This document shows, one piece after another, positions 28,158-56,082 of a DNA stretch of 64,000 nucleotides (positions are counted from its first letter, which is position 1; the number at the start of each line of letters is the position of its first letter). This DNA is from a virus: the IMG/VR virus record IMGVR_UViG_3300031521_000039, positions 21,198-85,197 of that record. The stretch is one strand, 5' to 3'. The position numbers were made by a program, and so were the translations under genes. The notes under the pieces were generated by a model. The model saw nothing but the letters and a program-made list of their open reading frames with translations, was not told the DNA's origin and did not search any database.

Positions 28158-28207
28158 ATTATCACTTCCTTTTATATTTATATTAATAAGTCATTAAACT
28201 TATCCTT

Positions 28208-28912
28208 TTACAAAGACTTTAATCTTTCATATTCATCCTCTAATCCACAGAATATTAATTCTAATGCATAAGGAAGTGTAGTAATCCATTTACAAAATAT
28301 TTCTTGCCACTCTAATTTAAGCCTATGGTGTCTACGTTGTAACAAGATATTTCTAATAGTTGAATAATTCATATTTACTGTTCTTGTGTTAATATAGCTT
28401 TCTGGAAGTATCCTTTTTGCTGAAGCTAAAACACTATCTTTACTTTTTTGATCTTGAACTTCAAAATAAACATCTCTCAAATAATTCAACCCCTTTATAG
28501 CATATGATATAGATTGTTTTTCTGCCTCAACATGATATTCAAACATATCTAATGAAATTTCAGTATTTTTATCAAATAGTTTATGCATTGTACTTGTTGA
28601 GTTTGCAGACGTTCCTATTTTATAAGTATCAAATTCTGACCACCAATATCTAGGAGCGGTAATATCGCACCATACTTGTATTTGCCTCATGAATTTACAA
28701 TGTTCAGTACCAGCCTTAATTAATGTTTGTGCTAGTTTTAAATCTTTTTCACCTATGGCAAAACTTTCTATATTGGTATTAATTACACTGTTACCTTTTT
28801 TTAGATAGTAACGATAATCATAGCTATCACTTAAATCCCATGAATTTTTTGCATTTCTCATACCTCTAAAACTTGCTTTAAATCCATAAACTTCTGTCTT
28901 TTCAATTTTCAT
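28208..28912 (-). CDS. thyX: ThyX/Thy1-like flavin-dependent thymidylate synthase (divergent)
   Basis: EHCKFMRQI, APRYWWSEFDTY, S.STMH, LPES, NY.TIRNI..QRR.HRL.EW. Lacks the canonical RHR motif. Confidence 0.65.
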   Translation of the reverse strand: MKIEKTEVYGFKASFRGMRNAKNSWDLSDSYDYRYYLKKGNSVINTNIESFAIGEKDLKLAQTLIKAGTEHCKFMRQIQVWCDITAPRYWWSEFDTYKIGTSANSTSTMHKLFDKNTEISLDMFEYHVEAEKQSISYAIKGLNYLRDVYFEVQDQKSKDSVLASAKRILPESYINTRTVNMNYSTIRNILLQRRHHRLKLEWQEIFCKWITTLPYALELIFCGLEDEYERLKSL

Positions 28913-28944
28913 ATTTTTAACCCTCCATTCTTATATTAATTTAT

Positions 28945-29262
28945 TTATTGGTTTTTTATATCATTTCCACCAATTTTATAATCATCTTTAAATAAATCTA
29001 ATCCTTTAGCATACTCATCTATATAACTTAAATCATCATTTCCATCAACTACAGTCGAATATTCATTATTTTTATTTAATCTATTATGTAATTCCTGATT
29101 GTCACTTCTTAACTGTCCATTATCTTTTTGTAATTCATAGTTATTTATTTTCAACAAGTCATTTTCTAATTCAAGCTTGTTTAATCTTGTATATAAATCC
29201 ATTAATGTTAATTGTCCATCTCTTGATTCCATTTCTTCTTTACATTCACATACATTACTCAT
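28945..29262 (-). CDS. Hypothetical coiled-coil protein
   Basis: ORF with RBS. Confidence 0.5.
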   Translation of the reverse strand: MSNVCECKEEMESRDGQLTLMDLYTRLNKLELENDLLKINNYELQKDNGQLRSDNQELHNRLNKNNEYSTVVDGNDDLSYIDEYAKGLDLFKDDYKIGGNDIKNQ

Positions 29263-29322
29263 TTTTATTATCTCCCTTTTAATTCATATTTTTATTGTTA
29301 TATTAATTTGTTAAATTGCTTT

Positions 29323-29514
29323 TTAATATTCATCTGTTGGTTTTGTAGCCAAACAAACTATATCATTCATTTGTTTGGTCAAAGACTCTATTAAATAACA
29401 TCTATCACATTTACTTTCTAAATACTTATTGCAAGTACATTGTAAGTTTTCAGTTTCATTAATTGCTTTGTTTATTATTGTAGCAATATTAAGATAATCA
29501 TTTCTTTTTGACAT
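29323..29514 (-). CDS. Hypothetical Cys-containing protein
   Basis: CTC...CDRC; RBS GGAGGG. Confidence 0.5.
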   Translation of the reverse strand: MSKRNDYLNIATIINKAINETENLQCTCNKYLESKCDRCYLIESLTKQMNDIVCLATKPTDEY

Positions 29515-29569
29515 ATCATATTCCCTCCAATTTTACGTTAAATTTTAATATTTACTTGGTTATCTTAAT

Positions 29570-29737
29570 TTATTTTAGTCTAAACCATGCTTTATAATAA
29601 TTAATCTTGCCTATATCTACTGGAACATCATTCCATATAACTCCATCATCCATACTATATTCTAAAGAGTTACAATCATCATTATGTTGTTTGTATACTG
29701 TTTGATATCCACCTTTATATATTTTTCCCTTTTCCAT
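29570..29737 (-). CDS. Hypothetical protein (55 aa, not in track)
   Basis: ATG overlaps the ligase stop; MEKGKIYKGGYQTVYK. Confidence 0.5.
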   Translation of the reverse strand: MEKGKIYKGGYQTVYKQHNDDCNSLEYSMDDGVIWNDVPVDIGKINYYKAWFRLK

Positions 29738-31017
29738 TAATTATAAGACACTTCCTTTCCTTCTTCTCTAATACATACAAATGTTGGAAATTGTAAACTG
29801 ATTAATTTAGTTTTCTTATCCATAGTTTCTTCTTTATATTTTACTTCTAAAATTCTACCTATGTATTTGTCACGATTTATCCAATATTCTTGACGTTGTT
29901 CATCTGAGTAGCCACTTCCTACATTAACCTTATTTCCTTTGTAGTCTATTATAAATGAACCTAATACTCCTTTATATTTTCCATCCCCTTCTTCATATCC
30001 AATGATTTTACAGTCCGCAGTTAAGAATTTTTTCACTTTTAATATTCCATTGTGTCGTTTGTTTCTCCATTCACAATCTTTAATAGCCATTAATCCTTCT
30101 TTATCTTCTGATGTAGCAACATCTAAATATTCATCTACTACTTCAATATCTGATCCTTCATAATAAACTTTTGGAATATCTAAATTTATTAATCCTTTTT
30201 CTAATGCTTCAGCTTTTAATTGTCTTAATTGTTTTAATCTTTCTTTGTATTTTAACTTGCTCTTTCCCGCAAAGAATTCATCTATAGGTAGTAAATCAAA
30301 TACTATAAAATCTATCATAGTTTTATATTCTGTATCTGAATTAACTATTGATGTAGTTAATCTAAAGTTTTCTCCATTTGATATATTATCTGTATTCTTT
30401 TTAACTAATTCACCATTGAAATAATATCCTTTGAAACTTGTTTGATTTAATTGTTCAAGTATATGAGATAAATTTGATATTTCTTTTCCTTGTCTACTGA
30501 GCATTATTCCATTAACATCTGAGCAATTAATACCATTAAGTTTTTCTTCTAAAATAAACCATGTACCTTTCTTTAATGGATATTTGTGTATTGGATATGC
30601 CTGTTGGATATTAAATTCTGGAATTAATCCTTTGATAGCTTTGTTAATTGTTTTACCTGATATATTACATCTAAGGTCTTTAGTAAGTACCTTAATCCAT
30701 AATTCTTGTTCTTCAGTAGATTTGATACTTAAAAATATTAATACTCTATTTCTAAGAATATCATTTATATTACTTTTTGACAGTTTATTCAACATATCGA
30801 ATCCATTGCTCCAAGTTTTATCATTATTTGCCACAAATTCATGTAGTAGACATCTAAGTTTCTTTTCGCTGAATCCAAATTGAATACTATCATTGTATGT
30901 ATAATATAGTATTTTAGTAAAATCTTCATTATCTTTATTATTTTGTATTATTGATACCTTGTCATTTGTACCACTTGTGCTTTCTAATTGGTTAATTATT
31001 TTTATTACTTCTTCCAT
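29737..31017 (-). CDS. lig: ATP-dependent DNA ligase
   Basis: EEKLNG (motif I variant), FNGEL, FDLL, EGLM, KVKKF, VGSG, FPTF..R. Confidence 0.92.
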   Translation of the reverse strand: MEEVIKIINQLESTSGTNDKVSIIQNNKDNEDFTKILYYTYNDSIQFGFSEKKLRCLLHEFVANNDKTWSNGFDMLNKLSKSNINDILRNRVLIFLSIKSTEEQELWIKVLTKDLRCNISGKTINKAIKGLIPEFNIQQAYPIHKYPLKKGTWFILEEKLNGINCSDVNGIMLSRQGKEISNLSHILEQLNQTSFKGYYFNGELVKKNTDNISNGENFRLTTSIVNSDTEYKTMIDFIVFDLLPIDEFFAGKSKLKYKERLKQLRQLKAEALEKGLINLDIPKVYYEGSDIEVVDEYLDVATSEDKEGLMAIKDCEWRNKRHNGILKVKKFLTADCKIIGYEEGDGKYKGVLGSFIIDYKGNKVNVGSGYSDEQRQEYWINRDKYIGRILEVKYKEETMDKKTKLISLQFPTFVCIREEGKEVSYN

Positions 31018-31114
31018 TTCTCTATCTCCTTTATTCTATTAATTTATTTACATATTATGTAATATAAGTTGTAAGGGCTTGTACTATTTAGAATTTAATT
31101 TCCCTTACAAGACT

Positions 31115-31143
31115 ATATTACTACTTATGGTTTGTTTTGTCAA
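31115..31143 (-). promoter_or_regulatory. sigmaA promoter for ligase
   Basis: TTGACA-N17-TAATAT. Confidence 0.55.
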
Positions 31144-31167
31144 TGTATTTATATTAATTTGTTTTAG

Positions 31168-32322
31168 TTATTTATATTTTTCAACTAATCTATCCATAAC
31201 ATCCCAATCTAATGTGCAATATAATTCTTCTTCATATTCTATCTCATTACCTCGTCCTAATGTTTGTGTTTCAAAGAATACTAATCCTTTTGTGTCTTTT
31301 TTATTTCTATTTATTTCATATCCTAAGTCAGCTTCATGCCAATATAAATATCTATCATTATCTGTATGAGTTGGATTTTCAGGACAAGTATTATGTAAGT
31401 ATAAAGTATCGTTTAACATATCTAATGCTTCATCTAATTGGCTATTGTAATCATAGTCATCATCGTATCTATGGGTTAATTTCCCTTTAGCATCATAACC
31501 TATATCATTAATCTGAACACAACATATTGGAGGTTGACCTAGTAAAAATTTAATATCTTCTATTTTGTCATAGCTTGTACATTCAAATTTGGGTAGTTTA
31601 GGTGCTTTTCTAAATATTAATATATGTGTTTTTATAGTTGTTCCACTTGCTGAAAATGTTTCTGGTGGTAATTCTATATTAGCAATAAACCAACAATTAT
31701 CCAATATGAATTCTCTAACTTTTTTTAAGGCTGATTTATAACCAATTCCACTAGGTAAAATAAATATTCCATAACCACCTACTTTTAATGATTTAACTGC
31801 CATTTCTAAAAAGAAAACATCACTATTAGCTTTGTATTTACCACTCTTTTTATCTAATTTGGTACAATCCCATTGTAAATCTCCTTCTACTGGTATATTA
31901 AAAGGAGGATTACTTATAATAGCATCGTAGTAATTTTCTCTGTAATGATTAATGGCACTATCATTTATTACTTCATGGTTTGTACAAATATTTAATATTT
32001 TAGCTGATACCTCATCAATTTCAACACAAGTTATTTTACTATCTTCTTTTATGTATTTAATTAAACTTCCACTACCAGCAGATGGTTCTAAAATTTTTGC
32101 TCCAACAGATAATTTAGGATTAATATAATCAGCTATAAATTTTGACACACATGATGGAGTAAAAAATTGTGCTAAACCGTCAACACCTAATACTGAACCA
32201 TATCCACTATAGTTTTCTTTTAATAATTGTTTCTCTTCTTCTGTAATCTGTTCTAGTGGCTTATGTATTATTGATATACATTCTTTGTTTTTCATTACTC
32301 TTTTTCTTTCATCTGAATTCAT
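31168..32322 (-). CDS. Orphan N6-adenine DNA methyltransferase
   Basis: QFFTP, LEPSAGSG (motif I), NPPF (motif IV). Confidence 0.9.
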   Translation of the reverse strand: MNSDERKRVMKNKECISIIHKPLEQITEEEKQLLKENYSGYGSVLGVDGLAQFFTPSCVSKFIADYINPKLSVGAKILEPSAGSGSLIKYIKEDSKITCVEIDEVSAKILNICTNHEVINDSAINHYRENYYDAIISNPPFNIPVEGDLQWDCTKLDKKSGKYKANSDVFFLEMAVKSLKVGGYGIFILPSGIGYKSALKKVREFILDNCWFIANIELPPETFSASGTTIKTHILIFRKAPKLPKFECTSYDKIEDIKFLLGQPPICCVQINDIGYDAKGKLTHRYDDDYDYNSQLDEALDMLNDTLYLHNTCPENPTHTDNDRYLYWHEADLGYEINRNKKDTKGLVFFETQTLGRGNEIEYEEELYCTLDWDVMDRLVEKYK

Positions 32323-32417
32323 TTCTTATAAAATCTCCTTTTTATTATATTTTATTTCTATTAATTTATTTAAATAAGACAAACATTTTCAATCTGCCTT
32401 ATTTTCTTTATATGGTT

Positions 32418-32822
32418 TTATAAACCTAATTCTGACTTTAATTTATAATATAAGCTTAGTTTCTCCTGATAATTTTGTTCTTTCTGTTCTTCTTCTAGTT
32501 TTTCTTTCTCTTTCAAGTCTTTTAATATTTCGTTTATTTCTTCTTGTGTAAAAACTTTGCATTCCACTAAGTCGTCTGCAAAATCACTATTTCCATATTC
32601 TCCTCCATCACAATAAGCCATAAGCATTTGATATAAATCGTATGAATCTTTATAGCTGAATACTGGCTTATTCCAATGGGTATCTATTTCTAACTCCCAA
32701 TATAGGAACTCATTTTCATGTGTTATCATAAGACTCCCATTATATCCAAAACTCCAACATATGTATTTAATATTCTTACCTTTTAAATCTTGTAAGTGTT
32801 CTAACATTTTTAAATTTACCAT
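32418..32822 (-). CDS. Hypothetical protein
   Basis: ORF with RBS. Confidence 0.55.
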   Translation of the reverse strand: MVNLKMLEHLQDLKGKNIKYICWSFGYNGSLMITHENEFLYWELEIDTHWNKPVFSYKDSYDLYQMLMAYCDGGEYGNSDFADDLVECKVFTQEEINEILKDLKEKEKLEEEQKEQNYQEKLSLYYKLKSELGL

Positions 32823-32957
32823 AATAATTCCTTCTTTCTATTAATTTGTTAACCTCTTATTTATAATAACATCTTTGGAATAATAATGCAATATATATAT
32901 TTCTATTAATTTATTATAAAAGAAAGGACAGAACTTTTACATTCTGCCTAACTCAAT

Positions 32958-33182
32958 TTATTTTATCTCTTTATTTTCTTGTTTATATATCTCAGTCATA
33001 AAGTAGTTATTTAACAATGCTAAAATAGTCCCTAATATAATTATAATGAATGATATTGAAATGGTATCACATCCAATAAATAGTTTAAATATTGTTGCAA
33101 CTGTTAATACTGAACCAACAATATTAATAAAAGCACTTATCATGCAACCTAGTATTTTTAAAATGCGTTTTAATACTTTCAT
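32958..33182 (-). CDS. Small two-TM membrane protein
   Basis: Two hydrophobic segments. Confidence 0.55.
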   Translation of the reverse strand: MKVLKRILKILGCMISAFINIVGSVLTVATIFKLFIGCDTISISFIIIILGTILALLNNYFMTEIYKQENKEIK

Positions 33183-33248
33183 AATTACATCTTCTTTCTC
33201 AGTAGTATTTAATTAATACTATTATGCTTGGATTAAATTTGTTGATTA

Positions 33249-33365
33249 TTATTCTTTATCTTCTTTTTTACTTTTTGAACTTGCAATAATTGCTTTGCAT
33301 ATAGGTTCTACTATACACATTCCTGTCATTAATATTATTAACATATAAAATGATAAATCTTCCAT
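33249..33365 (-). CDS. Small membrane peptide (38 aa, not in track)
   Basis: MEDLSFYMLIILMTGMCIVEPICKAII; RBS GGAAGG. Confidence 0.45.
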   Translation of the reverse strand: MEDLSFYMLIILMTGMCIVEPICKAIIASSKSKKEDKE

Positions 33366-33434
33366 AATTACACTACCTTCCTATTATGTATTAATTTATT
33401 GAATTAACTTAAAAGTATGATTTTAAGTGGTTAT

Positions 33435-33818
33435 TTAGAAATCGAGCCTAGTGATAGCCTTATTCTTAGAACGCATACTAGTTAAAATAAGATATAATTC
33501 ACTTGATTTTCTAATACCAGCAATCTTTTGACATATATCAGTCATTATTATTTGTTTTATACCAATTGAGTTTTCAAGAATGTCTCTTTCATGACAATAT
33601 ATTTGACATTGAACTCCATCTTCATTGAAATAGTAATATTTATCAACAATTTCCTTTTTATCTTTCTTAATTTCAGAGTTAAATTTTTTAAAAGTATTTG
33701 AAATATCAATAAGAACTTCATCAATATTTCTTATATCTCCATTTGGTAGATGAGTTACAATATTAATTTTAGCTAGAACATCTTGTACATGTATTTATTT
33801 TAAAACTAATGCTAACAT
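33435..33818 (-). pseudogene. Tape-measure-fragment-like ORF with in-frame TAA at codon 8
   Basis: ATG overlaps the dUTPase stop; MLALVLK* is followed by 119 open codons (DVLAKINIVTHLPNGDIRNIDEVLIDIS...ICQKIAGIRKSSELYLIL). Confidence 0.55.
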
Positions 33819-35283: not shown

Positions 35284-35502
35284 TACAATCTCTCCTTTTT
35301 CACCATTCTATTATTTTATTAACTGACAATAAAATATCTGTTTTAATAGAATATTTAGTTTTTAACCTAGCCTATAGCCCCATTCTTAAAATTGATTTTT
35401 TGTATTTTTAGTAATTTTGACGAATTTCACTATAGTTGCTTTAGATTTAATTTTTCTTGGAATTTTCGATATTTACTTTTAAAATCAATCCTAGAGCGTT
35501 TT

Positions 35503-39809: not shown

Positions 39810-39923
39810 TCTTTCTTATATTAATTTATTAACTCTTGATAAAATCAGCATTTCATTGTATTATTCAACCTCTGTATGCTAGTGATAGACCCATTGTTAT
39901 TTTTTATCTTTTATGAAAATTGG

Positions 39924-40841: not shown

Positions 40842-40904
40842 TTTTCATTTTCTCCTTTATATTTAGTTATATTAATTTGTTAAATTTCAGTTAAAACTAT
40901 TCTT

Positions 40905-41018
40905 TTATTTATTCATAACTCTAGCATATATACTTTTCAATGAATTTGCTATTTTTAAACTATTCTTATATGTAGAATTAGATAATAATTGTAATGCTTC
41001 TAATTTAGTTATATTCAT
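40905..41018 (-). CDS. Small protein (37 aa, not in track)
   Basis: MNITKLEALQLLSNSTY; RBS and promoter; stop lies inside the palindrome. Confidence 0.5.
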   Translation of the reverse strand: MNITKLEALQLLSNSTYKNSLKIANSLKSIYARVMNK

Positions 41019-41042: not shown

Positions 41043-41071
41043 ATAATATACCAACTAAGTTTTAAAGTCAA
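41043..41071 (-). promoter_or_regulatory. Early promoter, family copy 1
   Basis: TTGACT-N17-TATTAT with ATTGACTTTAAAA. Confidence 0.7.
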
Positions 41072-41086
41072 TGTACTTTTATTAAT

Positions 41087-41677
41087 TTATTTAACTATAT
41101 ATCCTTTTACTTTCTGAACTCCTAATTTAGAAATACGTTTAGAGTATTCTCTATCGCTTTCACCATATTCTCTTTCTATAAATACATCTAGTCTTGTATC
41201 TATTGCAAAATGTTTATTACTTCCTTTATCATTTACAATAACCTGTCCATATCTTTCTAGGTATATTTGAGTATTTTGTGGTATTACATTATTTGCAACT
41301 CCACCTCGACTAAGTTTTTTACCTTGACTTGTTATTGATCCATAACCATTTTCTGAATTCATAGAACTATAAAATGTTAATACAAATTCTTGCCATTGTG
41401 GTTCAATCTTCTTTTGTTTTTCCAACTCTTTTTCTTTTTGTAATTTTAATTCTTCACCTTTCTTTTTCTCTAGTTCTATTTTATCTCTTTCATATTGTTC
41501 TTGCATTGGATTAATTAATAATCCAAATTTATCAGTTTTTAGTACCATTTCTTTTGCATTAACTTGTTTTTCAGCTATCTGCATTGCATTATTGTGAAAT
41601 GGTGTTTGGTGTGTACTATATGTAGATAATAACAATGTTGTACTAAGTACACAGACAATCCTCTTTCCTTTTAGCAT
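41087..41677 (-). CDS. Secreted 3D-domain (MltA-B-like) cell-wall hydrolase
   Basis: Signal segment; LTFY...TSQG...VANNVIPQNT.IY...VNDKG...LDVFI. Confidence 0.75.
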   Translation of the reverse strand: MLKGKRIVCVLSTTLLLSTYSTHQTPFHNNAMQIAEKQVNAKEMVLKTDKFGLLINPMQEQYERDKIELEKKKGEELKLQKEKELEKQKKIEPQWQEFVLTFYSSMNSENGYGSITSQGKKLSRGGVANNVIPQNTQIYLERYGQVIVNDKGSNKHFAIDTRLDVFIEREYGESDREYSKRISKLGVQKVKGYIVK

Positions 41678-41698: not shown

Positions 41699-42562
41699 TT
41701 ATTTTTTAATCATAGTTATAGCTTTTTCTGTTTCATTTGCAATCTCTACTGTGTTATTAGCAAGTTCTTGAACCGCTGAACTAGTTTGTTCCATACATGC
41801 ACTTACTGAAATCATTCCATCATTTATTCCTTCTATACGTGATATTCTAAGTACATTACTTTCTTTGAGTTTCTTACTATTTTCTTTACCTGTTTCAGTT
41901 TTTTTAAGAATAATATTAGCTGTAACTTGTAAGTCTTCTACAATTTTACTAATCATTGTACTTGAGTTTTTAGTTTCTTCTGCAAGTTTTTTAACTTCAT
42001 TAGCTACAACTGCAAACCCTTTGCCAGCATCTCCTGCTCTTGCAGACTCTATACTTGCATTTAGCGATAAAAGATTAGTTTGATTAGCTATTTCTTTGAT
42101 TACATTTGTTATTTTAGAAATATCTTTCATTTTTACATATAATTCATTTGCATTATTATAGTTGTCAACATTATCATTATGGAATACTTCCATAATTCCA
42201 CTATTATTTTTTGCACTCTCATATGCAAGATTAACTTCTGAAGTAATATGAACTATATTTGATGTTACTTCTTGTATAGTAGCACTTATTTCTTCAACTG
42301 AACCTGCTTGACCGGTAATAGTATTGTTGATAGTTTCTATTTCTGTAAGTATATTTTTACCTACTTTATTTGTTGATTTTTTATATTCTTCGAATTCTTT
42401 ATCTTTACTAATTAAAGTTGTATGTAGTTCTTTATTTTTTAATTCTAGTTCTTTGATTTTATTATCACTTTCTAGTTTAAGTGTTTTTAACTTGTTGTCC
42501 ATTTCCTTTTCTAAAGATTCTCTTAGTTCTTGTAGTCCTTTTGTATTTTTAAATATTTTCAT
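41699..42562 (-). CDS. Soluble methyl-accepting chemotaxis protein (signalling domain only)
   Basis: [40 protein letters not shown]; no TM segment. Confidence 0.93.
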
Positions 42563-43476: not shown

Positions 43477-43532
43477 AATATCACCACCTTTTACGTTTAA
43501 TTAATTTATTAACTCCATGAAAAATTCGACTT

Positions 43533-43742
43533 TTAACATATTGGCGTTAAACAATGGTTACAATTACCACAAGTGATTTCGTCTTCTGTTGGTTCTAAAC
43601 TTACTTTGAATTCACCATTCTTTATAACTGTCCAAGGCACTATGTTTTGTTCATTTTCGAACTCTAATAATAATTTATTCTTATCTCTAGTAATTTTACA
43701 CTCTATTTCCTGACCTTCATTATTTTTAATTATTGCTTTCAT
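43533..43742 (-). CDS. Hypothetical protein
   Basis: RBS; stop lies inside the palindrome. Confidence 0.5.
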   Translation of the reverse strand: MKAIIKNNEGQEIECKITRDKNKLLLEFENEQNIVPWTVIKNGEFKVSLEPTEDEITCGNCNHCLTPIC

Positions 43743-44030: not shown

Positions 44031-44149
44031 ATATTACCATATAAGGATAACACCTGTCAACTTAATTATATTAATTTATTTATATTAAAAATACCAACAA
44101 GAATTTCTCCTGTTGGTATTATCTTAGCATTATTGGATTTTAAAGTCAA
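44031..44149 (-). promoter_or_regulatory. Two promoters around a terminator
   Basis: TTGACT-N17-TAAGAT (44149-44121), hairpin at 44090-44120, TTGACA-N18-TAATAT (44060-44031). Confidence 0.55.
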
Positions 44150-44177
44150 TGGTTTATTTTCCTTTATGTTAATTTAT

Positions 44178-46433
44178 TTATTTAATAACCAATTTAATGA
44201 CTTCATCTTGATTTGTTCTAGTATTTATTAAGAAATTACCTTGATTTCCACGTTTAGAATATAGGTAAGTATATAAATCTCTTTCTTCATTCGTTTTATT
44301 TGTTGGAACTATATCAGAAAGCATAAAAGTCTTAGACTTTCCCTTTAAAGTTTCTAGTTCAAAGTTGAATTCTTTAGCTACATCAATTATAGCACTAATA
44401 ACTCTATTGCCTTCATTTAGTTTCATTCCAACATTACCTTGTGAATTTGTACTACCTACTGCATTAAAATTACTACTATTAAATATTAATCCCTTTCCTT
44501 CATCTGATACCATTAATACATCCATATCTTTTTCGGCGTAGTATATATCTAATATTTTACTCTTGTTTGAATAACATTTCTCTAGTTTTTTATACGATGA
44601 TAAATACTTGTCTATCTTTATCTTAGCAAGATTTCCATCTTCATAAACTACTAGAATAAATCCAGTTGGTTTATCTATAGATACTATTTTAATTATTTCC
44701 TCATCTTCATCAAATCCTAATAATTTAGGCACAAAAGTACCATGTGTTGAAGGTTGATATTGTTCTAAATCAGAACATTGTAATTTATATCTTCTTTCTT
44801 TACTAGTAAATATTAATAAAGTGGACTTATTTGTAGTTATGAAGTCACCAAGTATAGTGTTTCCCTCGACAATTTTATGATTATCTGATTGCTTAAGGTG
44901 CTTCTTTATGTACTTATTAGTGTAGAAAATACGACAGTTATAGTTATACTCTTCTATAAATTCTTCTTGTGGTATTTGAATTATTTCACTTACATCTATA
45001 ACTTCTGCCAATCTAGGTCTTCCATATTTATCAGAAATAGTTTGCAATTGTTCTATTATTATTTTGTCTATTTCATCTATATTAGAAACAATATATTGTA
45101 AATATTCTACCTCTTTTTGTAACTCTTGTATTTGTTTAATTTGCTTTTCTATATAAGATTTATTTATATTTCTAAGCTTCATATCAGCTATAAATTGTGC
45201 TTGTTTTTCATCTATGTTAAACCCATCACATAAACTTTTTAATATCTTATCTTCTTCCGTGTGCCTTATTAGTTTAATTGCTTCGTCTATATCTATTAAA
45301 ACTTTCTGTAATCCTAGCATGATATGTAATTTTGCTGATTTTGTTTCAATTTCTTTATTAGTTAATTTTATTATACAATTTTCTCTAAATTTTATCCAAA
45401 AATCAAGGACTTCATTTATTCCTCTTACTTTTGGAACAAAATTTATTAAACTGTTCATATTATATGAAATATTTGATTCTAATGAGGTATATTTGTATAG
45501 TTTATTAACCAATAAATCAATATTTATATTTTTTCTTAAATATAAATCTACAGTATATTCTTCTTTTTGATCTTTTTTATTATATCCACTACCATCTTTA
45601 ACATCAGTTATTTCTTTAAATATGTTTAGCTTGTTTGTTATTTCTTTTAATACTCTTTCTACCGTTGTTGAGTATGGTATAAACATGGAAAGGATATTAT
45701 TTTCTTCATCAAATCTAGGTATTGCTCTTAATTTTATACTCCCTTTTCCTGTGTCACATATATTTTTAATATTTTCTTTATTATATATTACTTTACAATC
45801 TGTAGGAAAATCTGGAATTATATAATCTGAAGCTATTAGTGTTTTGTCTTTTATATATTTTGAAGTATAATCACATATGTCTTTTAAATTAAATCCATTA
45901 AAAGAACATGCTTCTCCTACAGCAATAGCACTTGTAAACATAGTTAAAATATTAGGATACATAGTAGGTAAGCAGACAGGTTCTTTATGTTCAGTATCAC
46001 CTATCATATCAACTACTCCATCATAGATTCCATCAAATAATGTTTTTTCAGAAAATCCACTTAATTTAGCAAAAGTATATCTGGGTGCAGAATATCCTCC
46101 TTGAGTTAATGTATTACCAAAATTACCATGACCAAGTATGAAAGGAGTAGATTGCGTTTGGTTTGTGTCTACAAGTAAAGATAATGATCCCATTAGTGAA
46201 GAGTCACCATGAACATAATATTTGGTTGCATTACCTATAATATCTAAACACTTAAAAAAGTCTTTTTCGCTAATCATTTTATTTGCCATCATACTATAAA
46301 GGATTTTTCTTTGTACAGGCAAAAATCCATCTTCTACTTTTGGCAAAGCTCTATCAACAATAGTTGACATTCCATAACTCATATAATCTTCTAAAACTTG
46401 TTCACTTAATTTTACTTTTTCTATTTCTGACAT
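44178..46433 (-). CDS. Type IIA topoisomerase subunit A (GyrA/ParC-like)
   Basis: RALPKVEDG..PVQR, HGDSS, SAPRYT (catalytic Tyr), pinwheel-like C-terminal domain. Confidence 0.92.
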   Translation of the reverse strand: MSEIEKVKLSEQVLEDYMSYGMSTIVDRALPKVEDGFLPVQRKILYSMMANKMISEKDFFKCLDIIGNATKYYVHGDSSLMGSLSLLVDTNQTQSTPFILGHGNFGNTLTQGGYSAPRYTFAKLSGFSEKTLFDGIYDGVVDMIGDTEHKEPVCLPTMYPNILTMFTSAIAVGEACSFNGFNLKDICDYTSKYIKDKTLIASDYIIPDFPTDCKVIYNKENIKNICDTGKGSIKLRAIPRFDEENNILSMFIPYSTTVERVLKEITNKLNIFKEITDVKDGSGYNKKDQKEEYTVDLYLRKNINIDLLVNKLYKYTSLESNISYNMNSLINFVPKVRGINEVLDFWIKFRENCIIKLTNKEIETKSAKLHIMLGLQKVLIDIDEAIKLIRHTEEDKILKSLCDGFNIDEKQAQFIADMKLRNINKSYIEKQIKQIQELQKEVEYLQYIVSNIDEIDKIIIEQLQTISDKYGRPRLAEVIDVSEIIQIPQEEFIEEYNYNCRIFYTNKYIKKHLKQSDNHKIVEGNTILGDFITTNKSTLLIFTSKERRYKLQCSDLEQYQPSTHGTFVPKLLGFDEDEEIIKIVSIDKPTGFILVVYEDGNLAKIKIDKYLSSYKKLEKCYSNKSKILDIYYAEKDMDVLMVSDEGKGLIFNSSNFNAVGSTNSQGNVGMKLNEGNRVISAIIDVAKEFNFELETLKGKSKTFMLSDIVPTNKTNEERDLYTYLYSKRGNQGNFLINTRTNQDEVIKLVIK

Positions 46434-49180: not shown

Positions 49181-49234
49181 TTCATTCTCTCCTTAATTAT
49201 ATTAATTTGTCAATATTCCATTAAAATTTCTCTT

Positions 49235-49501
49235 TTATTTGGAAGTTAATCCCAATTTATTTCTAATTGTCATATGTAAACCTACTATTCCTAACCATAA
49301 ATTAAACTCATATTTATTATAATTTTCTCCACCTGTGATATTACCATAATCATCAACATCACAATTATAAGTTTCAATCTCTTTGTTAATTGTAATTCCT
49401 ATTATGCATTGGTTATTTTCTTTATAAAAATTAGTTTTATGAAATTCTATTTTCTTAATATTTTTGTTATATTCATGCATATTAATTTCCCTCCTTGTCA
49501 T
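49235..49501 (-). CDS. Hypothetical protein
   Basis: Stop lies inside the palindrome. Confidence 0.5.
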   Translation of the reverse strand: MTRREINMHEYNKNIKKIEFHKTNFYKENNQCIIGITINKEIETYNCDVDDYGNITGGENYNKYEFNLWLGIVGLHMTIRNKLGLTSK

Positions 49502-49781: not shown

Positions 49782-49794
49782 TTATTTCACACTC

Positions 49795-50031: not shown

Positions 50032-50052
50032 CCTCCTTATCTTTATTCTCTT

Positions 50053-50175: not shown

Positions 50176-50186
50176 TGTAATTCCTC

Positions 50187-50822
50187 CTATTCAATAATTA
50201 ATTCATTTTTAATAATACATTTTCTTCTATTTTTAAATCTCCACCATGAAGAATTATTATATCTTCTAACAAGTTGATATTTAAGAGTTATTATGGTTTC
50301 TGCGTTTTCTAATTTAAAATCACAATAGGTACTAAAACAACTTGAAGCTTTCTCTACAGATGTTCCATAATGTCTATAACTACCTCCAATACTATCATTC
50401 TCTTTATCATATTCAGATTCATAAACATCAATATAAATATCTAGTCCTTTATAATAATCTAAATTATTTTTGATAACTTGTAATAGTCCTAATTTTTCAA
50501 TTGCATTAATTTCATTTTTAGACACTAGATGTATATAACCAAATTCTTCGTCACCATAAAAATTAATCATATTATTAGTATTATTTAAACTCCATCCTTG
50601 ATATTCTCTAACTCGAATCAATTCTTTTGGCTTTTCTTCTTTTTCTTTGGGATTTTTAAATTCAGCTTTTACAAAGTTAGTTTTCCCAGTTATAATTTGT
50701 CCACAATGTTTACATTTATAAACTGTTATATTCTCTTCATTATTATCAAATTTATGTCTTGTGACATCATGTATTTTCATAATATGTAGGTTATGACCTA
50801 ATAAACATTTAATATTTTTCAT
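50187..50822 (-). CDS. Hypothetical protein with N-terminal CLLGH...CxxC
   Basis: ATG at 50822 after GAGGAG. Confidence 0.55.
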   Translation of the reverse strand: MKNIKCLLGHNLHIMKIHDVTRHKFDNNEENITVYKCKHCGQIITGKTNFVKAEFKNPKEKEEKPKELIRVREYQGWSLNNTNNMINFYGDEEFGYIHLVSKNEINAIEKLGLLQVIKNNLDYYKGLDIYIDVYESEYDKENDSIGGSYRHYGTSVEKASSCFSTYCDFKLENAETIITLKYQLVRRYNNSSWWRFKNRRKCIIKNELIIE

Positions 50823-51082
50823 CTTATATTTAACTCCTCGTCCATATTTCCATCCCACTTTTGAAAGTTCTCATAATCAAAACTTTTTGCATAAATATCA
50901 TTAGCTCTTAATACTGCATTTTTACATACATCAATTAATGTATCTCCATAACAAGAACTACCATATATTTGATTTCCTGAAACTTTATTTAGTTCATCTG
51001 CAAAATAAACTTGAACTAAATAATCGTCAATTCTAACTAACCAATCTTTATTATTAAATTTAACATTCTTTTCTAATACCAT
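50819..51082 (-). CDS. Hypothetical protein
   Basis: RBS GGAGG. Confidence 0.5.
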   Translation of the reverse strand: MVLEKNVKFNNKDWLVRIDDYLVQVYFADELNKVSGNQIYGSSCYGDTLIDVCKNAVLRANDIYAKSFDYENFQKWDGNMDEELNIR

Positions 51083-51096
51083 TTTATTTATCCTCC

Positions 51097-51684
51097 TTAT
51101 TCTTTAAATTCTAATATTTCATCATTTTCAGTATTCATGATATAAAATGGTTTATCTACTCCACAACTAAAATGAGAAGCACTTTGTAATCCTATATGTA
51201 TTTTATCAACAATATCCTTATTACTATCTTCTAATGCAAATAAACTACCATTGGCGTGATATTCTCCACAGCCACATGATCCATAATCTTCAAAACTTTC
51301 ACTAACTTGAAAATCACATTCAACTTCAAATAATTTATCTTTGTATGATATTAAGAAAAAACCACCTTCATCTTTCTTACCATAGTTCCCATCTTCAAAT
51401 AACTTTTTAATTTTAGGTATTAATTCAGTAACCATGAATTTATGATCTATAGTCCATTTTTTAAAAGTTATTTCTTCTTCTGTCGGAAATATATCTGAAT
51501 ACATTAGCAATTGTCCCATTCTATAAGAACTCGTAAATCCTAGTAAGAAATTCTTATTCTTTTCTGGCTTAAATATCTTCTTGTCTTTTCTATATGTTTT
51601 TGTATTCCCATTTGAACCTAAGCTGTCGCACCCCATATATGTTTTCTTATTCTTTTTGTCAATTACTCCTATAATACATGTCAT
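51097..51684 (-). CDS. Proteasome/HslV-type Ntn-hydrolase protease
   Basis: M-T(1)CIIG...MGCDS...KIF...GFTSS.R.GQ...CGCGEYHANGSL. Confidence 0.75.
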   Translation of the reverse strand: MTCIIGVIDKKNKKTYMGCDSLGSNGNTKTYRKDKKIFKPEKNKNFLLGFTSSYRMGQLLMYSDIFPTEEEITFKKWTIDHKFMVTELIPKIKKLFEDGNYGKKDEGGFFLISYKDKLFEVECDFQVSESFEDYGSCGCGEYHANGSLFALEDSNKDIVDKIHIGLQSASHFSCGVDKPFYIMNTENDEILEFKE

Positions 51685-51851
51685 TTTTATATCACTCTCT
51701 TTCATATTACTTTTTATTGTTCTATTAATTTATTAAATTACCTTAAAATGCGAATTTTAAAGTCTAATTATGCAATTATCATTCACATTTCTTGCATAAT
51801 TTAATCTATTATCCCGTTGTTTTTATCATTTTTGCAAGATTGCAATTTGTA

Positions 51852-52148
51852 TTATTCGTGTTTATGAGATTTGTTGTAAGCTTTAATAATATCTTCTGAA
51901 TTTTTTAAAAATTCAATATCAATAGATTTTAACATTTCTTCTTTTGGTTTATGAAATGCATCATTCTTTCTATTCTCCCATTTTTTAAAAGCTTCTAACC
52001 ATTTATAGTCTTCTGGAAAGAACATATCATCTGAAGCTATATAACTAAACATATTGTTTATAAGTTGTCCAAATCTTAAATCAGGACTCTCTAACCATAT
52101 TTCAGTTAATATTTTCATAAATGGTTCTATTCTATTTATATCTCTCAT
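51852..52148 (-). CDS. Phage protein (MRD..RI...W...PDLRFGQL family)
   Basis: Conserved N-terminal motif. Confidence 0.6.
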   Translation of the reverse strand: MRDINRIEPFMKILTEIWLESPDLRFGQLINNMFSYIASDDMFFPEDYKWLEAFKKWENRKNDAFHKPKEEMLKSIDIEFLKNSEDIIKAYNKSHKHE

Positions 52149-52640
52149 TTATTTACACCCTCCTAATAATTCTAAAGCCTTTTTCAATTCATTCTTAGTA
52201 AATCCATAATAATCATTACATTGAACTAATCTATCTTCTAAGTCGCCTATATCATTTTCATCATCTAAAATTACATAATTAATATCCATATCAGAAAACA
52301 TATATAACCATTCTTTAATTTCTTCACCTCTAGTTTTATCCTTTAACAATGGTGTTGATGAAAAATATCTGTCATTTATTATTTCATATAATTTCAAATT
52401 ATTACAAATATCTTTTATACCATTGTCAGTATCTCTCCAACTAGAACTTATAACTATGTATGCATTAGTCTTGTCTATTAATTCTTTTAAATTCTTCATG
52501 CAGATTGGATCAAAATTAAATTGAGCATTCCAACTATCACATTCATGATGTTTAACTTGATAATCTTGAAATCTCCAAGTGTTAAGAACTCCATCAATAT
52601 CTAAGAAAATTATATTCATTTTATTTATCACAAGTTTCAC
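52149..52640 (-). CDS. HAD phosphatase (Swiss-army-knife RNA-repair type)
   Basis: FLDIDGVLN, ISSSWR, RGEEIKEWL, VILDD. Confidence 0.85.
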   Translation of the reverse strand: MKLVINKMNIIFLDIDGVLNTWRFQDYQVKHHECDSWNAQFNFDPICMKNLKELIDKTNAYIVISSSWRDTDNGIKDICNNLKLYEIINDRYFSSTPLLKDKTRGEEIKEWLYMFSDMDINYVILDDENDIGDLEDRLVQCNDYYGFTKNELKKALELLGGCK

Positions 52641-52885
52641 CTCAATTTTATTTTAATATACTTAAATAATTCACTAATTCCCATTAGAATTAATAATATA
52701 AAATACCATAACCCTAAAACAAACAATATTATCAATGGAACAAAAGTTAAGATACTTCCTGTTTTATAAAACTGAAACTTCCAAAATACACATCCTATCA
52801 TTGCAAAAGTAAAACATAATCCTACAATTTTATTTGTATATTTATCTCCTAGTTTTATTGACTTATCTATAATTTTATCAAACAA
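52637..52885 (-). CDS. Two-TM membrane protein
   Basis: Hydrophobic segments. Confidence 0.55.
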   Translation of the reverse strand: MFDKIIDKSIKLGDKYTNKIVGLCFTFAMIGCVFWKFQFYKTGSILTFVPLIILFVLGLWYFILLILMGISELFKYIKIKLR

Positions 52886-52937
52886 TTAAATCACCTTATC
52901 TATATTAATTTATTTATAACCTATTAAAACAAGCTTT

Positions 52938-53270
52938 TTAAAAAGTGTTAATATCAAATCTATTGATTATATTTTGTATTTTCCTAATTTTTTTAGTTAA
53001 TTTATCTTTTAAGTCTTCATGTTCAGTATAATGTATAAAACTCCTAATTATTTCTAACTCATCAAGTGTAAATTCATTATATATAATTTCAAAATCATCA
53101 GACAATATCATATCCATAGGTTTAAATTTAACTCTTATATTTTCATCCACTACAAAGCTATAATATCTATCATCATCCTTATAATTTAGCCAATCCTCAT
53201 ATGTAAATAATGTTTGAGTTGATTTATGAATTGCATATTTAAATTTAATCATTTTTAATTCTCCTCCCAT
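52938..53270 (-). CDS. Hypothetical protein
   Basis: Stop lies inside the palindrome. Confidence 0.5.
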   Translation of the reverse strand: MGGELKMIKFKYAIHKSTQTLFTYEDWLNYKDDDRYYSFVVDENIRVKFKPMDMILSDDFEIIYNEFTLDELEIIRSFIHYTEHEDLKDKLTKKIRKIQNIINRFDINTF

Positions 53271-53641
53271 ATTTTTTCTAACATATTTTCTACTTCATCA
53301 AAAGCTAATTTGTTACTTCTTGATTTATCTACTATATCTTTAATCTCATCTAATATTTTATCTTTTGTAGATTCTAGTTCCTTATTTTCTTCATATAAAT
53401 CATCATACTTATCTTTTAAATCACTATTTTCAGTGTCCAAAGTATCATAAGCTTCATCTTTATCAGCCATTTCATCTTCTAAAATATCTAGTCTGTCTAA
53501 ATCAGCTTCTACACTACCAAATGTATTTTCTAATAAATCATATAATCCACTATCTATATATTCTTTAATTTGTTTTAATACATTACCATCTTCATAAATT
53601 GTAACTGTCTGTCCATTATCTAATGTCAATACCATAATCAA
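53255..53641 (-). CDS. Acidic coiled-coil protein
   Basis: Heptad pattern; D/E-rich. Confidence 0.5.
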   Translation of the reverse strand: MIMVLTLDNGQTVTIYEDGNVLKQIKEYIDSGLYDLLENTFGSVEADLDRLDILEDEMADKDEAYDTLDTENSDLKDKYDDLYEENKELESTKDKILDEIKDIVDKSRSNKLAFDEVENMLEKIWEEN

Positions 53642-53927
53642 TCACCTCTTTAGATTCTTCATAATCATATTGAAAATCATAAATTCTATTTTTTGTATAA
53701 ATCCATACTCCTCCATCATCTTCATCAAATGATTCTACCGATGAACTTGTGCAAATTGAACCAGTTTCATACAACCATTGAATAGGTTCTCCTTCTTTTA
53801 TGTATTCAGGTAAATAACACTTTCTACCTATTCTATAAGCATATTTTTCATCTCTTTGGTTAGTTTCTTTGTTTAATACTTCACATATTTTCATTCTTTG
53901 TCTTTTATTAAATTCCATTTTAATCAT
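53616..53927 (-). CDS. Hypothetical protein
   Basis: TS.V......IYTKNRIY motif. Confidence 0.5.
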   Translation of the reverse strand: MIKMEFNKRQRMKICEVLNKETNQRDEKYAYRIGRKCYLPEYIKEGEPIQWLYETGSICTSSSVESFDEDDGGVWIYTKNRIYDFQYDYEESKEVIDYGIDIR

Positions 53928-54001
53928 CCTCTCTATTTATGTTAATTTATTATAAGGTTTTAAAATCCAAGTTTGATTGGAACTTAAAAATCTATGCCTT
54001 C

Positions 54002-54187
54002 TCATATATATTCTTTCTTTTTCTCCTCAATAATGTTTTTAAATATACATTGAAGAACAGTTCCCATTTTAATTATACTAGTATAATCATTTTCTATTAT
54101 AACATCTACTATTTTATCATATGCTAAAACCTTTTGTTCTGTTGTTAAATCTTTTAATATATACATAGTTATTTCACTTCCTTTCAT
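54002..54187 (-). CDS. Hypothetical protein
   Basis: ORF with RBS. Confidence 0.45.
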   Translation of the reverse strand: MKGSEITMYILKDLTTEQKVLAYDKIVDVIIENDYTSIIKMGTVLQCIFKNIIEEKKKEYI

Positions 54188-54232
54188 AAACCTATCTTAC
54201 CATAGATTTCTAATTGGTTCAATATGTTTCTA

Positions 54233-54961
54233 TTAATTTGTTGCTTTTATGTATAATTTATAGTCTTCGTGTAACCATTTATGTATTTTATTTAATCTAT
54301 TAGAACTAAAATTAGGATTATCCTTATTATACCATTCATCAAATAATGAAGTATGTTTACTACTGTTACATATCTTACAAGAGGGAATGCAATTGCTTAA
54401 ATCATTGTTTCCCTCATGATCTACATGCTCTTTATGAAAGTCTGTTAATCTAATTTCACCTTTAAATTTATTATAGTGTTGCTCGATAGATAGTCCACAA
54501 TAAGCACACTCATTATTAAAGTATTCTTTGCAATTAATCCACTCCTTTTTACTAATTTTATGATTTCCATGCATTTCTCTATTTTCCCTATATTCTTTCA
54601 TCTTATTAGGATTGTTTCTTTGCCAATCTCTTTGAACTCCCTTATCTCGTCCTTCCTTATTCATTCTTTTTAGGTTTTCTTTTCTTTTTGGATTTTGGTC
54701 ATGTTTTTTACAATAATTTGCTCTTTTATCTCTATGATTCTTGCCCCATTGGGAATTTTTCTTCTTTTCACAAGTTTTACAATAAGGACTTAAGCCATCA
54801 TTACTTCCTTTGTTTTTGTAGAAGAATTCATCAGTACATAGTAGCCATTCTTCCTCGTTAGGGGAATATTCTTCATGTATAGAACAACGTTTATATAATT
54901 TCCCATCTATTTCTTTATGATTCTCTTGATAATGAATAAGAATTTTCTCTTTTTGATTCAT
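54233..54961 (-). CDS. HNH endonuclease
   Basis: CAYCG...EHVDH...N..SNCIPSCKICNSSK. Confidence 0.85.
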   Translation of the reverse strand: MNQKEKILIHYQENHKEIDGKLYKRCSIHEEYSPNEEEWLLCTDEFFYKNKGSNDGLSPYCKTCEKKKNSQWGKNHRDKRANYCKKHDQNPKRKENLKRMNKEGRDKGVQRDWQRNNPNKMKEYRENREMHGNHKISKKEWINCKEYFNNECAYCGLSIEQHYNKFKGEIRLTDFHKEHVDHEGNNDLSNCIPSCKICNSSKHTSLFDEWYNKDNPNFSSNRLNKIHKWLHEDYKLYIKATN

Positions 54962-55018
54962 TTAATTACTCTCACCTTTCTTTAATTAATTTACAATATA
55001 ATATCGATTTTAAAAGAA

Positions 55019-55483
55019 CTATCTAATATTTATTATCTCATATTCTTTATCAATATAGATATAATGTCCAAAATTCATATAATCAAGACTAACTGAGGTT
55101 TGTACTATTCTATGTTTTTTCATATCTAATAATGCAAAAGGATATTCTGGATTCATCTCTGAATTATCTAACACTTGATATTCTTTATTGATTCCATCTT
55201 TATTTACTAATAATATAGATCCAATATTAATTTGCATATCTTCTAATTTTGATGTATGTTTTGCATAATCGTCCATTGCGACTTGTGTAATTTGTGATAA
55301 AACATTTAAATCAAAATTTTCTTTATTACTTTTAAAATAGTAAGGTGGTCTATAACCTTCAAAGAAAGGTTTCTTTTCTTCAGTATCAATATATGTACCT
55401 CTAATTTTACCTCTTATAGTTTGTCCGATATTGTCTATAGACTCTATAATTGAACCATTTTCAAATTTTATTTTATTACTCAT
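55019..55483 (-). CDS. Hypothetical protein with N-terminal terminase-like segment
   Basis: MSNKIKFENGSIIESI...IRGKIRG.YID; ATG at 55483 after GGAGG. Confidence 0.5.
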   Translation of the reverse strand: MSNKIKFENGSIIESIDNIGQTIRGKIRGTYIDTEEKKPFFEGYRPPYYFKSNKENFDLNVLSQITQVAMDDYAKHTSKLEDMQINIGSILLVNKDGINKEYQVLDNSEMNPEYPFALLDMKKHRIVQTSVSLDYMNFGHYIYIDKEYEIINIR

Positions 55484-55484
55484 A

Positions 55485-55790
55485 TCATTTATCCTCCAAT
55501 TTATTTCCACATAATGGACAGTATTCAATTTTTATACCTTCACTTATTGGTGCTATTACCAATTCATTGTTATTCAATGTATTCATTTTTCTAAAATAAG
55601 TCACATCTAAATAATTATTCCATTTCATACTAATAGAGAATTCATTATTCTCATCAGCACAACCACAACAACCTTCGCAATTACGATTATAATCTTTACT
55701 TCTTATCGTGTCACATAAGTTATCCTCTGCATATGTAGTTCTAAATTGTAATTTCTTTTCTGTTCCCATTGTTTCACAAAATTCACACAT
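55485..55790 (-). CDS. Cys-rich phage protein
   Basis: MCEFC...IEYCPLCGNKL. Confidence 0.6.
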   Translation of the reverse strand: MCEFCETMGTEKKLQFRTTYAEDNLCDTIRSKDYNRNCEGCCGCADENNEFSISMKWNNYLDVTYFRKMNTLNNNELVIAPISEGIKIEYCPLCGNKLEDK

Positions 55791-55984
55791 TATCTATCAA
55801 CTCCTTTAAAGTAACTATATTCTTTAAATATTTCATCAGATTCTATTCTTTTACCATCTACGAATAATCCACCTTTTCCTTTTTCTACTTTTTCATATTT
55901 GAAATTACATTCTTTTAAAATATCTTCAAACTCATTATCAGTTAAATTATCAAATATACTTTTATATTTTTCTTTATCATCCAT
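55790..55984 (-). CDS. Hypothetical protein
   Basis: RBS AAGGAG. Confidence 0.5.
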   Translation of the reverse strand: MDDKEKYKSIFDNLTDNEFEDILKECNFKYEKVEKGKGGLFVDGKRIESDEIFKEYSYFKGVDR

Positions 55985-56082
55985 TTTTACATCTCCTTTA
56001 AATTTAATTATATTCTATTAATTTATTAACTCTTGGTAAATTCATGTTTTTACTTGGAGTTAACCCTAGCAATCATGCTGTT

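Follow-up and report, generated by a model that had tools for sequence, protein, structure and literature searches.

We describe here a repeated intergenic element in a virus known from metagenomes (IMG/VR record IMGVR_UViG_3300031521_000039, 85 kb, of which bases 21198–85197, 64,000 nucleotides in all, form the window that was analysed): a 16-nt interrupted palindrome, TAAAA-N6-TTTTA, with a hexamer (N6) that differs from site to site, commonly accompanied by a 12-mer box, AATAAATTAATA. A sequence-only reading of the window had taken the palindromes for sites of an integron- or pdif-like system through which a phage tyrosine recombinase shuffles accessory genes. The pdif modules of Acinetobacter plasmids have XerC/XerD sites (11-6-11) of alternating orientation, and the attC sites of integrons are structured single-strand sites, with promoterless cassettes whose order changes. 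Other precedents come from phages themselves. The PeSLs of T4-type phages are composite intergenic motifs that extend from the upstream stop codon to the Shine–Dalgarno (SD) sequence and start of the next gene, are present in many copies, mostly before ORFans in plastic regions, and stand at insertion, deletion and replacement junctions of related phages, their shared promoter sequence being the proposed homology patch (Arbiol et al., 2010, PMC2839356; Comeau et al., 2014, PMC4122927). In the Bacillus phage SPbeta, a short element, the SPBRE operator, is repeated in many early-gene promoter regions (10 ChAP-seq peaks) and is bound by MrpR (YopR), a protein with a tyrosine-recombinase fold that represses instead of recombining (PMC10516654). 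Finally, dif sites have well-conserved 10–11-bp arms, occur as one copy per replicon and adjoin the recombinase gene (PMC5357621, PMC5241119).

The islands of the window (palindrome and box together) are like PeSLs in their stop-to-start span, their repetition and their position before ORFans and at indel and replacement junctions. They differ in that their promoter part is not sigma-70/sigma-A-like, in having fixed A/T arms around a site-specific conserved 6-nt core, which has not been described for PeSLs, and in belonging to an SPbeta/phiCD211-like genome, not to a T4-like myovirus. The likeness to SPBRE (short repeats in early-gene promoter regions of an SPbeta-like phage) is one of description, the SPBRE motif being given only in a figure; there are 25–30 sites per genome here and, unlike MrpR, the recombinase of the window keeps all its catalytic residues. 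No MrpR-like protein was found among two candidates checked. The island belongs to neither family: its promoter-like part does not resemble sigma-70 promoters, a stable stem-loop is lacking, and the recombinase shows no degeneration. With difH (AGTTATGAAAA / TTTTCAAACT) and difSL the palindrome shares inverted arms ending in AAAA / TTTT and a centre of about 6 bp, but here only 5 bp per arm are conserved, the copies number 25–30, and the recombinase is absent from one lineage. Variable gene cargo between repeated short sites, and stop codons overlapping the site, recall pdif and attC; by contrast, the order is fixed here, every unit brings a promoter-like box of its own, and none of the junctions is demonstrably in the core. 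We lean, with slightly more confidence than doubt, towards the view that the element is a conserved intergenic regulatory island made of two separable modules, the box and the A/T inverted repeat; the island doubles as a module boundary.

Composite islands at gene junctions

The window is organized as two divergent arms: a + arm (1–27.7 kb) of chiefly large, mostly unannotated and probably late genes, with the tyrosine recombinase gene at its end, and a – arm (28.2–64 kb), the early or replication arm. On the early arm the composite reads, on the gene strand, as the stop codon of the preceding gene, in many cases supplied by the TAA with which the left arm opens, the palindrome TAAAA-N6-TTTTA, a 9–10-nt linker, the box AATAAATTAATA with (G/T)AA after it, some 10–25 nt containing a ribosome-binding site (RBS), and the start codon. 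Each genome has about 25–30 such composites, nearly all on this arm. At 1347, 4261 and 16072, on the + arm, the box comes first and the palindrome second, a reversal that the sequence-only reading had not noticed.

Three long lineages were compared: W, the record of the window; G1, a genome of about 224 kb assembled from G001 and G003 (overlap 37.7 kb, 100% identity); and G2, which is G002 (218 kb, 88% complete), with G005 as a part of it. Three or four further lineages are known from pieces. The ten strong sites of the window and two variants are as follows.

Island A: 56016–56052 (–), palindrome 56037–56052 with N6 ACATGA, 9-nt linker, box 56016–56027; gene start 55984; same N6 in G1 and G2
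Island B: 53940–53976 (–), palindrome 53961–53976 with N6 CTTGGA, box 53940–53951; gene start 53927; same N6 in G2
Island C: 52903–52940 (–), palindrome 52925–52940 with N6 AGCTTG, box 52903–52914; left-arm TAA is the stop of gene 52938–53270
Island D: 51723–51759 (–), palindrome 51744–51759 with N6 TTCGCA, box 51723–51734; downstream genes differ among W, G1 and G2
Island E: 49200–49237 (–), palindrome 49222–49237 with N6 GAGAAA, box variant GACAAATTAATA at 49200–49211; left-arm TAA is the stop of gene 49235–49501
Island F: 43499–43535 (–), palindrome 43520–43535 with N6 GTCGAA, box 43499–43510; same N6 in G1 and L221
Island G: 40870–40907 (–), palindrome 40892–40907 with N6 GAATAG, box 40870–40881; left-arm TAA is the stop of a 37-codon ORF
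Island H: 39819–39855 (–), palindrome 39840–39855 with N6 TGCTGA, box 39819–39830
Island I: 35309–35345 (–), palindrome 35330–35345 with N6 CAGATA, box variant 35309–35320
Island J: 33389–33425 (–), palindrome 33410–33425 with N6 TCATAC, box 33389–33400
Variant palindrome: 54997–55012 (–), N6 TCGATA, one mismatch, followed by a degenerate box
Variant palindrome: 28195–28210 (–), N6 GGATAA, one mismatch, degenerate box; overlaps the stop of gene 28208–28912 at the junction of the two arms

The palindrome is non-random: the window holds nine exact copies against 2.66 ± 1.58 in shuffles, and none of 100 shuffles reaches nine. In the 85-kb record ten of the eleven exact palindromes are intergenic, intergenic DNA being 12.7% of the total, which corresponds to 0.93 per kb of intergenic and 0.013 per kb of coding sequence and bears out the placement at gene junctions claimed by the sequence-only reading. 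Exact intergenic copies in the record number ten at a spacer of 6 nt and none at spacers of 2–5 and 7–11. That reading was also accurate in its coordinates, in its report of a box beside ten of the palindromes (10/10) and in the overlap of five of them with the stop codon of the upstream gene (5/5, the upstream ORF at 40905 having only 37 codons). Two of its sites, 29539 and 32375, have two mismatches and are singly indistinguishable from background (427 two-mismatch matches genome-wide), and the symmetry it saw in the flanks (CC..TAAAA / TTTTA..GG) survives as a weak tendency only, with C at –4 in 11 of 20 sites and G at +3 to +5 in 8 of 20. Across sites the conserved arm bases are T-AA- / -TT-A only, and N6 lacks a consensus except at its last position (A in 14/20, never T). 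No consensus emerges, in any register, if N6 is taken for a –35 hexamer or if the –10 element is placed in the left arm.

Distances between successive sites follow no conserved ruler. The intervals between the sites that correspond to window positions 51744–56052 are 3208, 827 and 945 nt in G1 and 3245, 1430, 1445 and 697 nt in G2.

The palindrome also occurs beyond this clade. In the 134-kb Clostridioides difficile phage LIBA6276 (L219, MF547662, 60–109 kb) there are 12 exact palindromes in 49 kb and no AATAAATTAATA box; at least 10 of the 12 stand directly before an SD sequence and start codon, mostly 5–25 nt away. The palindrome may be a common feature of phiCD211/SPbeta-like phages whose hosts are low-G+C anaerobes.

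Hexamers kept in order across lineages

Fifteen identical hexamers are common to G1 and G2, with their order unchanged; chance would account for about 0.2. Of the ten strong sites of W, nine have a counterpart with the same N6 in G1 and seven in G2, and lineage L221 retains GTCGAA, GAATAG and TGCTGA, in order. We refer to sites with the same N6 as having the same address; 46 such pairs, defined by N6 identity, were compared with non-orthologous site pairs, with the following identities.

N6: same-address 1.00 (46/46, pairs selected by N6); non-orthologous 0.32
Left arm: same-address 0.874; non-orthologous 0.856
Right arm: same-address 0.943; non-orthologous 0.939
Linker: same-address 0.53–0.59; non-orthologous 0.38–0.46
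Box: same-address 0.924; non-orthologous 0.905
12 nt to the left: same-address 0.48; non-orthologous 0.41
12 nt after the box: same-address 0.54; non-orthologous 0.46

Because the pairs were defined by N6, orthologues of site H were sought in metagenomes through a left-flank anchor, which is free of that bias. TGCTGA is what W, G1, G2 and L221 all have there, whereas a single short contig has TGTTAA. Of all parts of the island N6 is thus under the strongest constraint, without being immutable.

Islands as module boundaries

What changes between the lineages is the cargo. At the same address the adjoining ORFs are homologous in none of 16 upstream and 3 of 16 downstream comparisons. When 68 nt on each side were scored against the 98th percentile of non-orthologous pairs, the 46 pairs comprised 32 with neither flank homologous, five with the right only, six with the left only and three with both, so that in 43 of 46 one flank or both lack homology. 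Kept in order in all relatives while the ORFs between them are replaced, the islands are mosaic junctions and mark module boundaries. That much of the proposed shuffling of accessory genes stands: the sites bound variable gene modules, with the same order, the same N6 and mostly unrelated ORFs. The part that made a recombinase the agent does not gain support from the junctions themselves. The clade is mosaic throughout (RecJ of W and G2 is 95% identical, the adjacent PolIII 46%), and the breakpoints of gene gain and loss, which the sequence-only reading expected inside N6, are nowhere demonstrably there; those that can be placed lie on the box/5′-UTR side of the palindrome or outside it.

Eleven pairs have one homologous flank, and at least four or five of these break at the box or the start codon, none demonstrably within N6 (in four pairs with only the left flank homologous the linkers are diverged and the position of the junction is not resolvable). 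At TGCTGA (W–G1) and GATGTC (G2–L174) the left flank, palindrome and linker are kept (linkers 8/9 and 9/9 identical) and homology stops right after the box. At AGTTAA (G1–L105) an identity of about 93% sets in with the first base of the box, the linker and arms being different, while at GAATAA (G2–L174) and CAGATA (W–G1) the right flank or gene is kept, resuming after the box or at the start codon, with a dissimilar linker. A block of 91.5% identity between W and G2, which includes the RecJ gene, ends at a box-only site (60194–60205, –) that immediately precedes the PolIII-alpha RBS. No palindrome closes the cassette after site H, which stops at an ordinary spacer of 19 nt; the address of a 78-aa gene differs between W and G1, and no sites flank it; and segments between two sites are themselves mosaic. 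In the AGTATG pair, both of whose flanks are homologous, the 5 nt directly outside each arm are still dissimilar, as they are between orthologues whose further flanks are 85–90% alike, so these positions are free of constraint. Contigs of four sequencing runs showed many ‘joints’ at boxes and islands, explained by the fact that diverged relatives align only at the conserved islands; no nucleotide-level junction and no circular form was found in them.

The box as a candidate promoter element

The box, overlooked in the sequence-only reading as a motif in its own right, is the dominant motif and far commoner than the palindrome. With up to one mismatch it occurs 51 times in the window against 16.4 ± 3.7 expected, 46 of the 51 being co-oriented with genes; in the record all 22 exact copies, 21 of them intergenic, run in the direction of transcription. 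Among the relatives, the two largest records (G001 and G002) have 52–60 exact copies against 0–3 for the reversed control. The box is found on both arms, with or without a palindrome. It lies within 120 nt upstream of 32 of 102 genes, its end mostly 16–25 nt before the start codon, and it is followed by GAA or TAA in 14 of the 22 exact copies.

The box itself has no –35/–10 arrangement; canonical promoters are separate from it and lie downstream of some boxes. In at least eight places a box lies 8–10 nt upstream of a sigma-A promoter, TTGACA-N17-(TG)nTAATAT, a tandem that probably serves early plus later expression. Six examples are given here.

Box plus sigma-A promoter: 41043–41091 (–)
Box plus sigma-A promoter: 44031–44080 (–)
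Box plus sigma-A promoter: 44121–44178 (–)
Box plus sigma-A promoter: 31115–31163 (–)
Box plus sigma-A promoter: 54190–54242 (–)
Box plus sigma-A promoter: 56440–56490 (–)

In the tightest intergenic regions (52–57 nt) the SD sequence begins 3–8 nt after the box, so that a promoter function of the box would require transcription to begin immediately behind it. Such a start would fit an extended –10 element of the T4 late type, or a promoter reaching +1. A literature search for the box sequence returned nothing relevant.

The recombinase

The enzyme nominated by the sequence-only reading is encoded at the arm junction.

XerH-like tyrosine recombinase: 25712–26737 (+), 341 aa; G1 has a 56% orthologue, likewise where its arms meet, and G2 none

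It is a simple Xer-like protein whose best solved-structure relative is XerH (E 9e-11). The alignment shows a complete catalytic set (R, E, K, H, R, H and Y), so that the protein is probably active; the nomination was right as to intactness. LIBA6276 has an annotated integrase at the equivalent place, which makes prophage integration the simpler role. G2 has the same addresses, and in its 218 kb (88% complete) no orthologue was found; its only tyrosine recombinase is 23% identical and located elsewhere, beside a group-I-intron-like sequence. This 311-aa recombinase-like ORF (G005:37677–38612, L193) is followed by sequence almost identical to an intron-like intergenic stretch at 9268–9675 of the window's record, upstream of the window.

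The proposed dif/pdif geometry is justified to the extent that the palindrome resembles the inner arms of the XerH/difH and XerS/difSL sites, but conservation extends to just five A/T bases in each arm, and a Xer-type enzyme requires 10–11 bp. The comparison with integrons does not hold, since every unit comes with a promoter-like box; moreover, the hairpins are marginal. The integron-integrase and XerA/integron-integrase cut-offs are also missed by a wide margin (G1 orthologue, 24.6 bits against 265; W protein, 66.1 against 220).

Regulation, RNA or recombination?

How, then, might the islands work? On the reading we favour, the box with its (G/T)AA extension would be a phage-specific promoter element reaching as far as the transcription start. 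Since the searches described below detected no phage RNA polymerase, it would probably be read by the host RNA polymerase, redirected by a phage factor. The inverted repeat of the early arm, centred near –28 to –30 of the putative start, would function at the DNA level, bound by a regulator that the phage encodes, for which SPBRE and MrpR in SPbeta provide the precedent, being a case of the very outcome (operators, not recombination sites) that the sequence-only reading had named as counting against itself. The shared box could in addition be a homology patch for modular exchange, as with the PeSLs of T4. For the palindrome, weak hairpins and the lack of compensatory arm changes favour a role at the level of DNA, and the reversed order on the late arm, the box-free site H of G2 and the box-free copies in LIBA6276 make it an independent module, widespread at gene junctions in this phage group with or without the box.

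Several observations weigh against this regulatory reading. The putative promoter role of the box is read from its position and orientation. Searches for a phage RNA polymerase with PF00940, PF00562 and PF00623 gave no match (uninformative for PF00940, whose positive control gave no signal either), and a six-frame search for a DxDGD-type motif found none; a 770-aa protein of G2 (phrog_5156), checked in the same connection, has no solved relative. An ECF-like sigma factor is present only in G2/G005, with no homologue in the W and G1 sequence available. The islands are without the stable G/C stem-loop terminator of PeSLs (0 to –6 kcal/mol). An arm-bound operator does not explain why N6 is conserved better than the arms (1.00 against 0.87 and 0.94), and the arm identities equal those of non-orthologous pairs. 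Lastly, the palindromes of the late arm and of LIBA6276 do not have the upstream-of-box geometry, so the role of the palindrome is not tied to the box. As to the sigma factor of G2, it has 199 aa (regions 2 and 4) and is encoded at L045:1168–1767 (–), i.e. in G002, after address GAGAAA and behind a box plus sigma-A promoter.

Three other explanations have to be set beside the regulatory island. An RNA element, in the form of an intercistronic hairpin with an N6 loop, present in read-through transcripts or a small RNA family and serving as a weak attenuator, a processing or stability signal or an object of loop-specific recognition, would suit the location between stop codon and next RBS (in LIBA6276, directly before the SD sequence), the position after stop codons on the late arm, where terminators sit, and a loop conserved better than its stems. 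We nevertheless consider it unlikely: the predicted hairpins (0 to –6 kcal/mol) are marginal, with only two of ten better than shuffles; the folds are inconsistent among orthologues; arm changes are uncompensated (e.g. TCAAA opposite TTTTA); there is no match to Rfam or to tRNA and no U-tract after the hairpin; and a search for a pairing partner of N6 found no nearby complement or direct copy, and no second copy in 85 kb. That the palindromes are functionless by-products of A/T-rich intergenic DNA might be suggested by the 26% G+C of the phage, the commonness of two-mismatch versions and the two weak sites, which do not stand out from background. For the ten strong sites this is already refuted by the excess of exact copies over 100 of 100 shuffles, the enrichment of the 6-nt spacer alone, the fixed position relative to the box and the collinear order of N6 across lineages, and we give chance practically no weight.

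The remaining alternative keeps the palindromes as dif/XerH-like core sites, across whose N6 the phage tyrosine recombinase would exchange strands in a natural recombinase-mediated cassette exchange between co-infecting relatives. With an N6 peculiar to each site, recombination would be confined to matching addresses on two relatives, and cassettes would be swapped with gene order kept. It agrees with N6 being best conserved and identical across up to four or five lineages, amid arms, linkers and flanks near background, with the islands as mosaic junctions, the preference for the 6-nt spacer, the likeness of the inner arms to difH (..GAAAA / TTTTC..) and difSL (PMC5357621), the intact, XerH-matched recombinase and the persistence of the site-H palindrome in G2 without a box. 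Yet junctions that can be placed lie at the box, the start codon or outside the palindrome; where only the right flank is homologous the linker does not accompany it, although strand exchange in N6 would demand this; the outer positions of the arms are hypervariable from one orthologue to another, which leaves no 10–11-bp binding arm; G2 has the sites and no orthologue of the recombinase; the gene in W and G1 stands where LIBA6276 has its integrase, for which integration is simpler; blocks between two addresses are themselves mosaic; and one orthologue has a changed N6, TGTTAA. Strand exchange by the recombinase is therefore quite improbable in our judgement. It retains a small probability because it is the only simple model that requires an identical site-specific hexamer amid drifting surroundings. 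The same slim chance attaches to the idea of address-coded sites, with generic A/T arms around a site-specific 6-bp overlap, like heterospecific lox sites.

The phage and other features of the window

The – arm encodes DnaB, primase, RecJ, PolIII-alpha, a two-subunit topoisomerase II, NrdD/NrdG, an ATP-dependent ligase, a methyltransferase and numerous small ORFans. The order helicase–primase–RecJ–DnaE and an integrase at the arm end are as in LIBA6276, whose replication-gene set was found by the same search in large Bacillus siphoviruses too; these we take to be SPbeta-type. The phage of the window resembles a large SPbeta/phiCD211-like phage of about 250 kb, uncultivated and from peat. CheckV gives its record a completeness of 34%; the 24 runs that contain the sequence are all peat-metagenome DNA, and megablast against known phages gave no match. 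Other IMG/VR contigs are 100% identical to G1 or are diverged mosaics, and a 248,556-bp metagenome contig (behind L223) probably holds an entire G1-type genome. Another gene of the early arm (41699–42562, –) encodes a protein with a methyl-accepting chemotaxis signalling domain (PF00015, E 3e-32; G1, 57%; G2, 74%).

The remaining features concern the late arm and a second element upstream of some palindromes.

Late-arm arrangement: 1330–1362 (+), box variant 1330–1341, containing the stop of gene 630–1334, then palindrome 1347–1362
Late-arm arrangement: 4246–4278 (+), box 4246–4257, palindrome 4261–4276, inverted box copy 4267–4278; same N6, CAATTA, in the G1 orthologue
Late-arm arrangement: 16045–16087 (+), box variant 16045–16056, palindrome 16072–16087 with N6 TAGCAA; same N6 in the G1 orthologue
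CTAG element (AAyGGnGCTATyACTAGyy type): 39862–39897 (–), about 20–25 nt upstream of palindrome H
CTAG element: 56060–56080 (–), before island A, CTAG at 56066
CTAG element: 35355–35386 (–), before island I, CTAG at 35367
CTAG element: 33436–33466 (–), before island J, CTAG at 33448

In the second late-arm arrangement (4246–4340, +) the box at 4246 and its inverted copy at 4267 form a long A/T hairpin, downstream of which, after gene 3440–4246, a G.U-rich hairpin and T-run (AGGCTTAGGG...CTCTAGGTCT TTTTATT) looks like a genuine terminator and is kept in the G1 orthologue. The CTAG element, of about 35–45 nt with CTAG invariable, lies upstream of a subset of palindromes and occurs also in G1, G2, L174 and L147. 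Its sequence is kept among paralogous and orthologous sites, and it has no consistent hairpin; as a coding C-terminus or mini-ORF it was rejected, the frames being short and inconsistent.

Implications

How phages exchange modules without scrambling their gene order is an old question of phage mosaicism, with which Botstein's linker idea and the PeSLs of T4 are associated. The present clade is an extreme case, in which islands of 16–40 bp stand in fixed order in at least five or six lineages while nearly all the adjacent ORFs differ, each island having its own hexamer, better conserved than its surroundings. If the box is a promoter, it would define how transcription is signalled in an uncultivated group of SPbeta-like phages of roughly 250 kb; should the hexamers be read by base pairing or strand exchange, they would represent a new way of addressing recombination or regulation. 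Either way, the islands are landmarks for delimiting accessory cargo, which is probably concerned with anti-defence.

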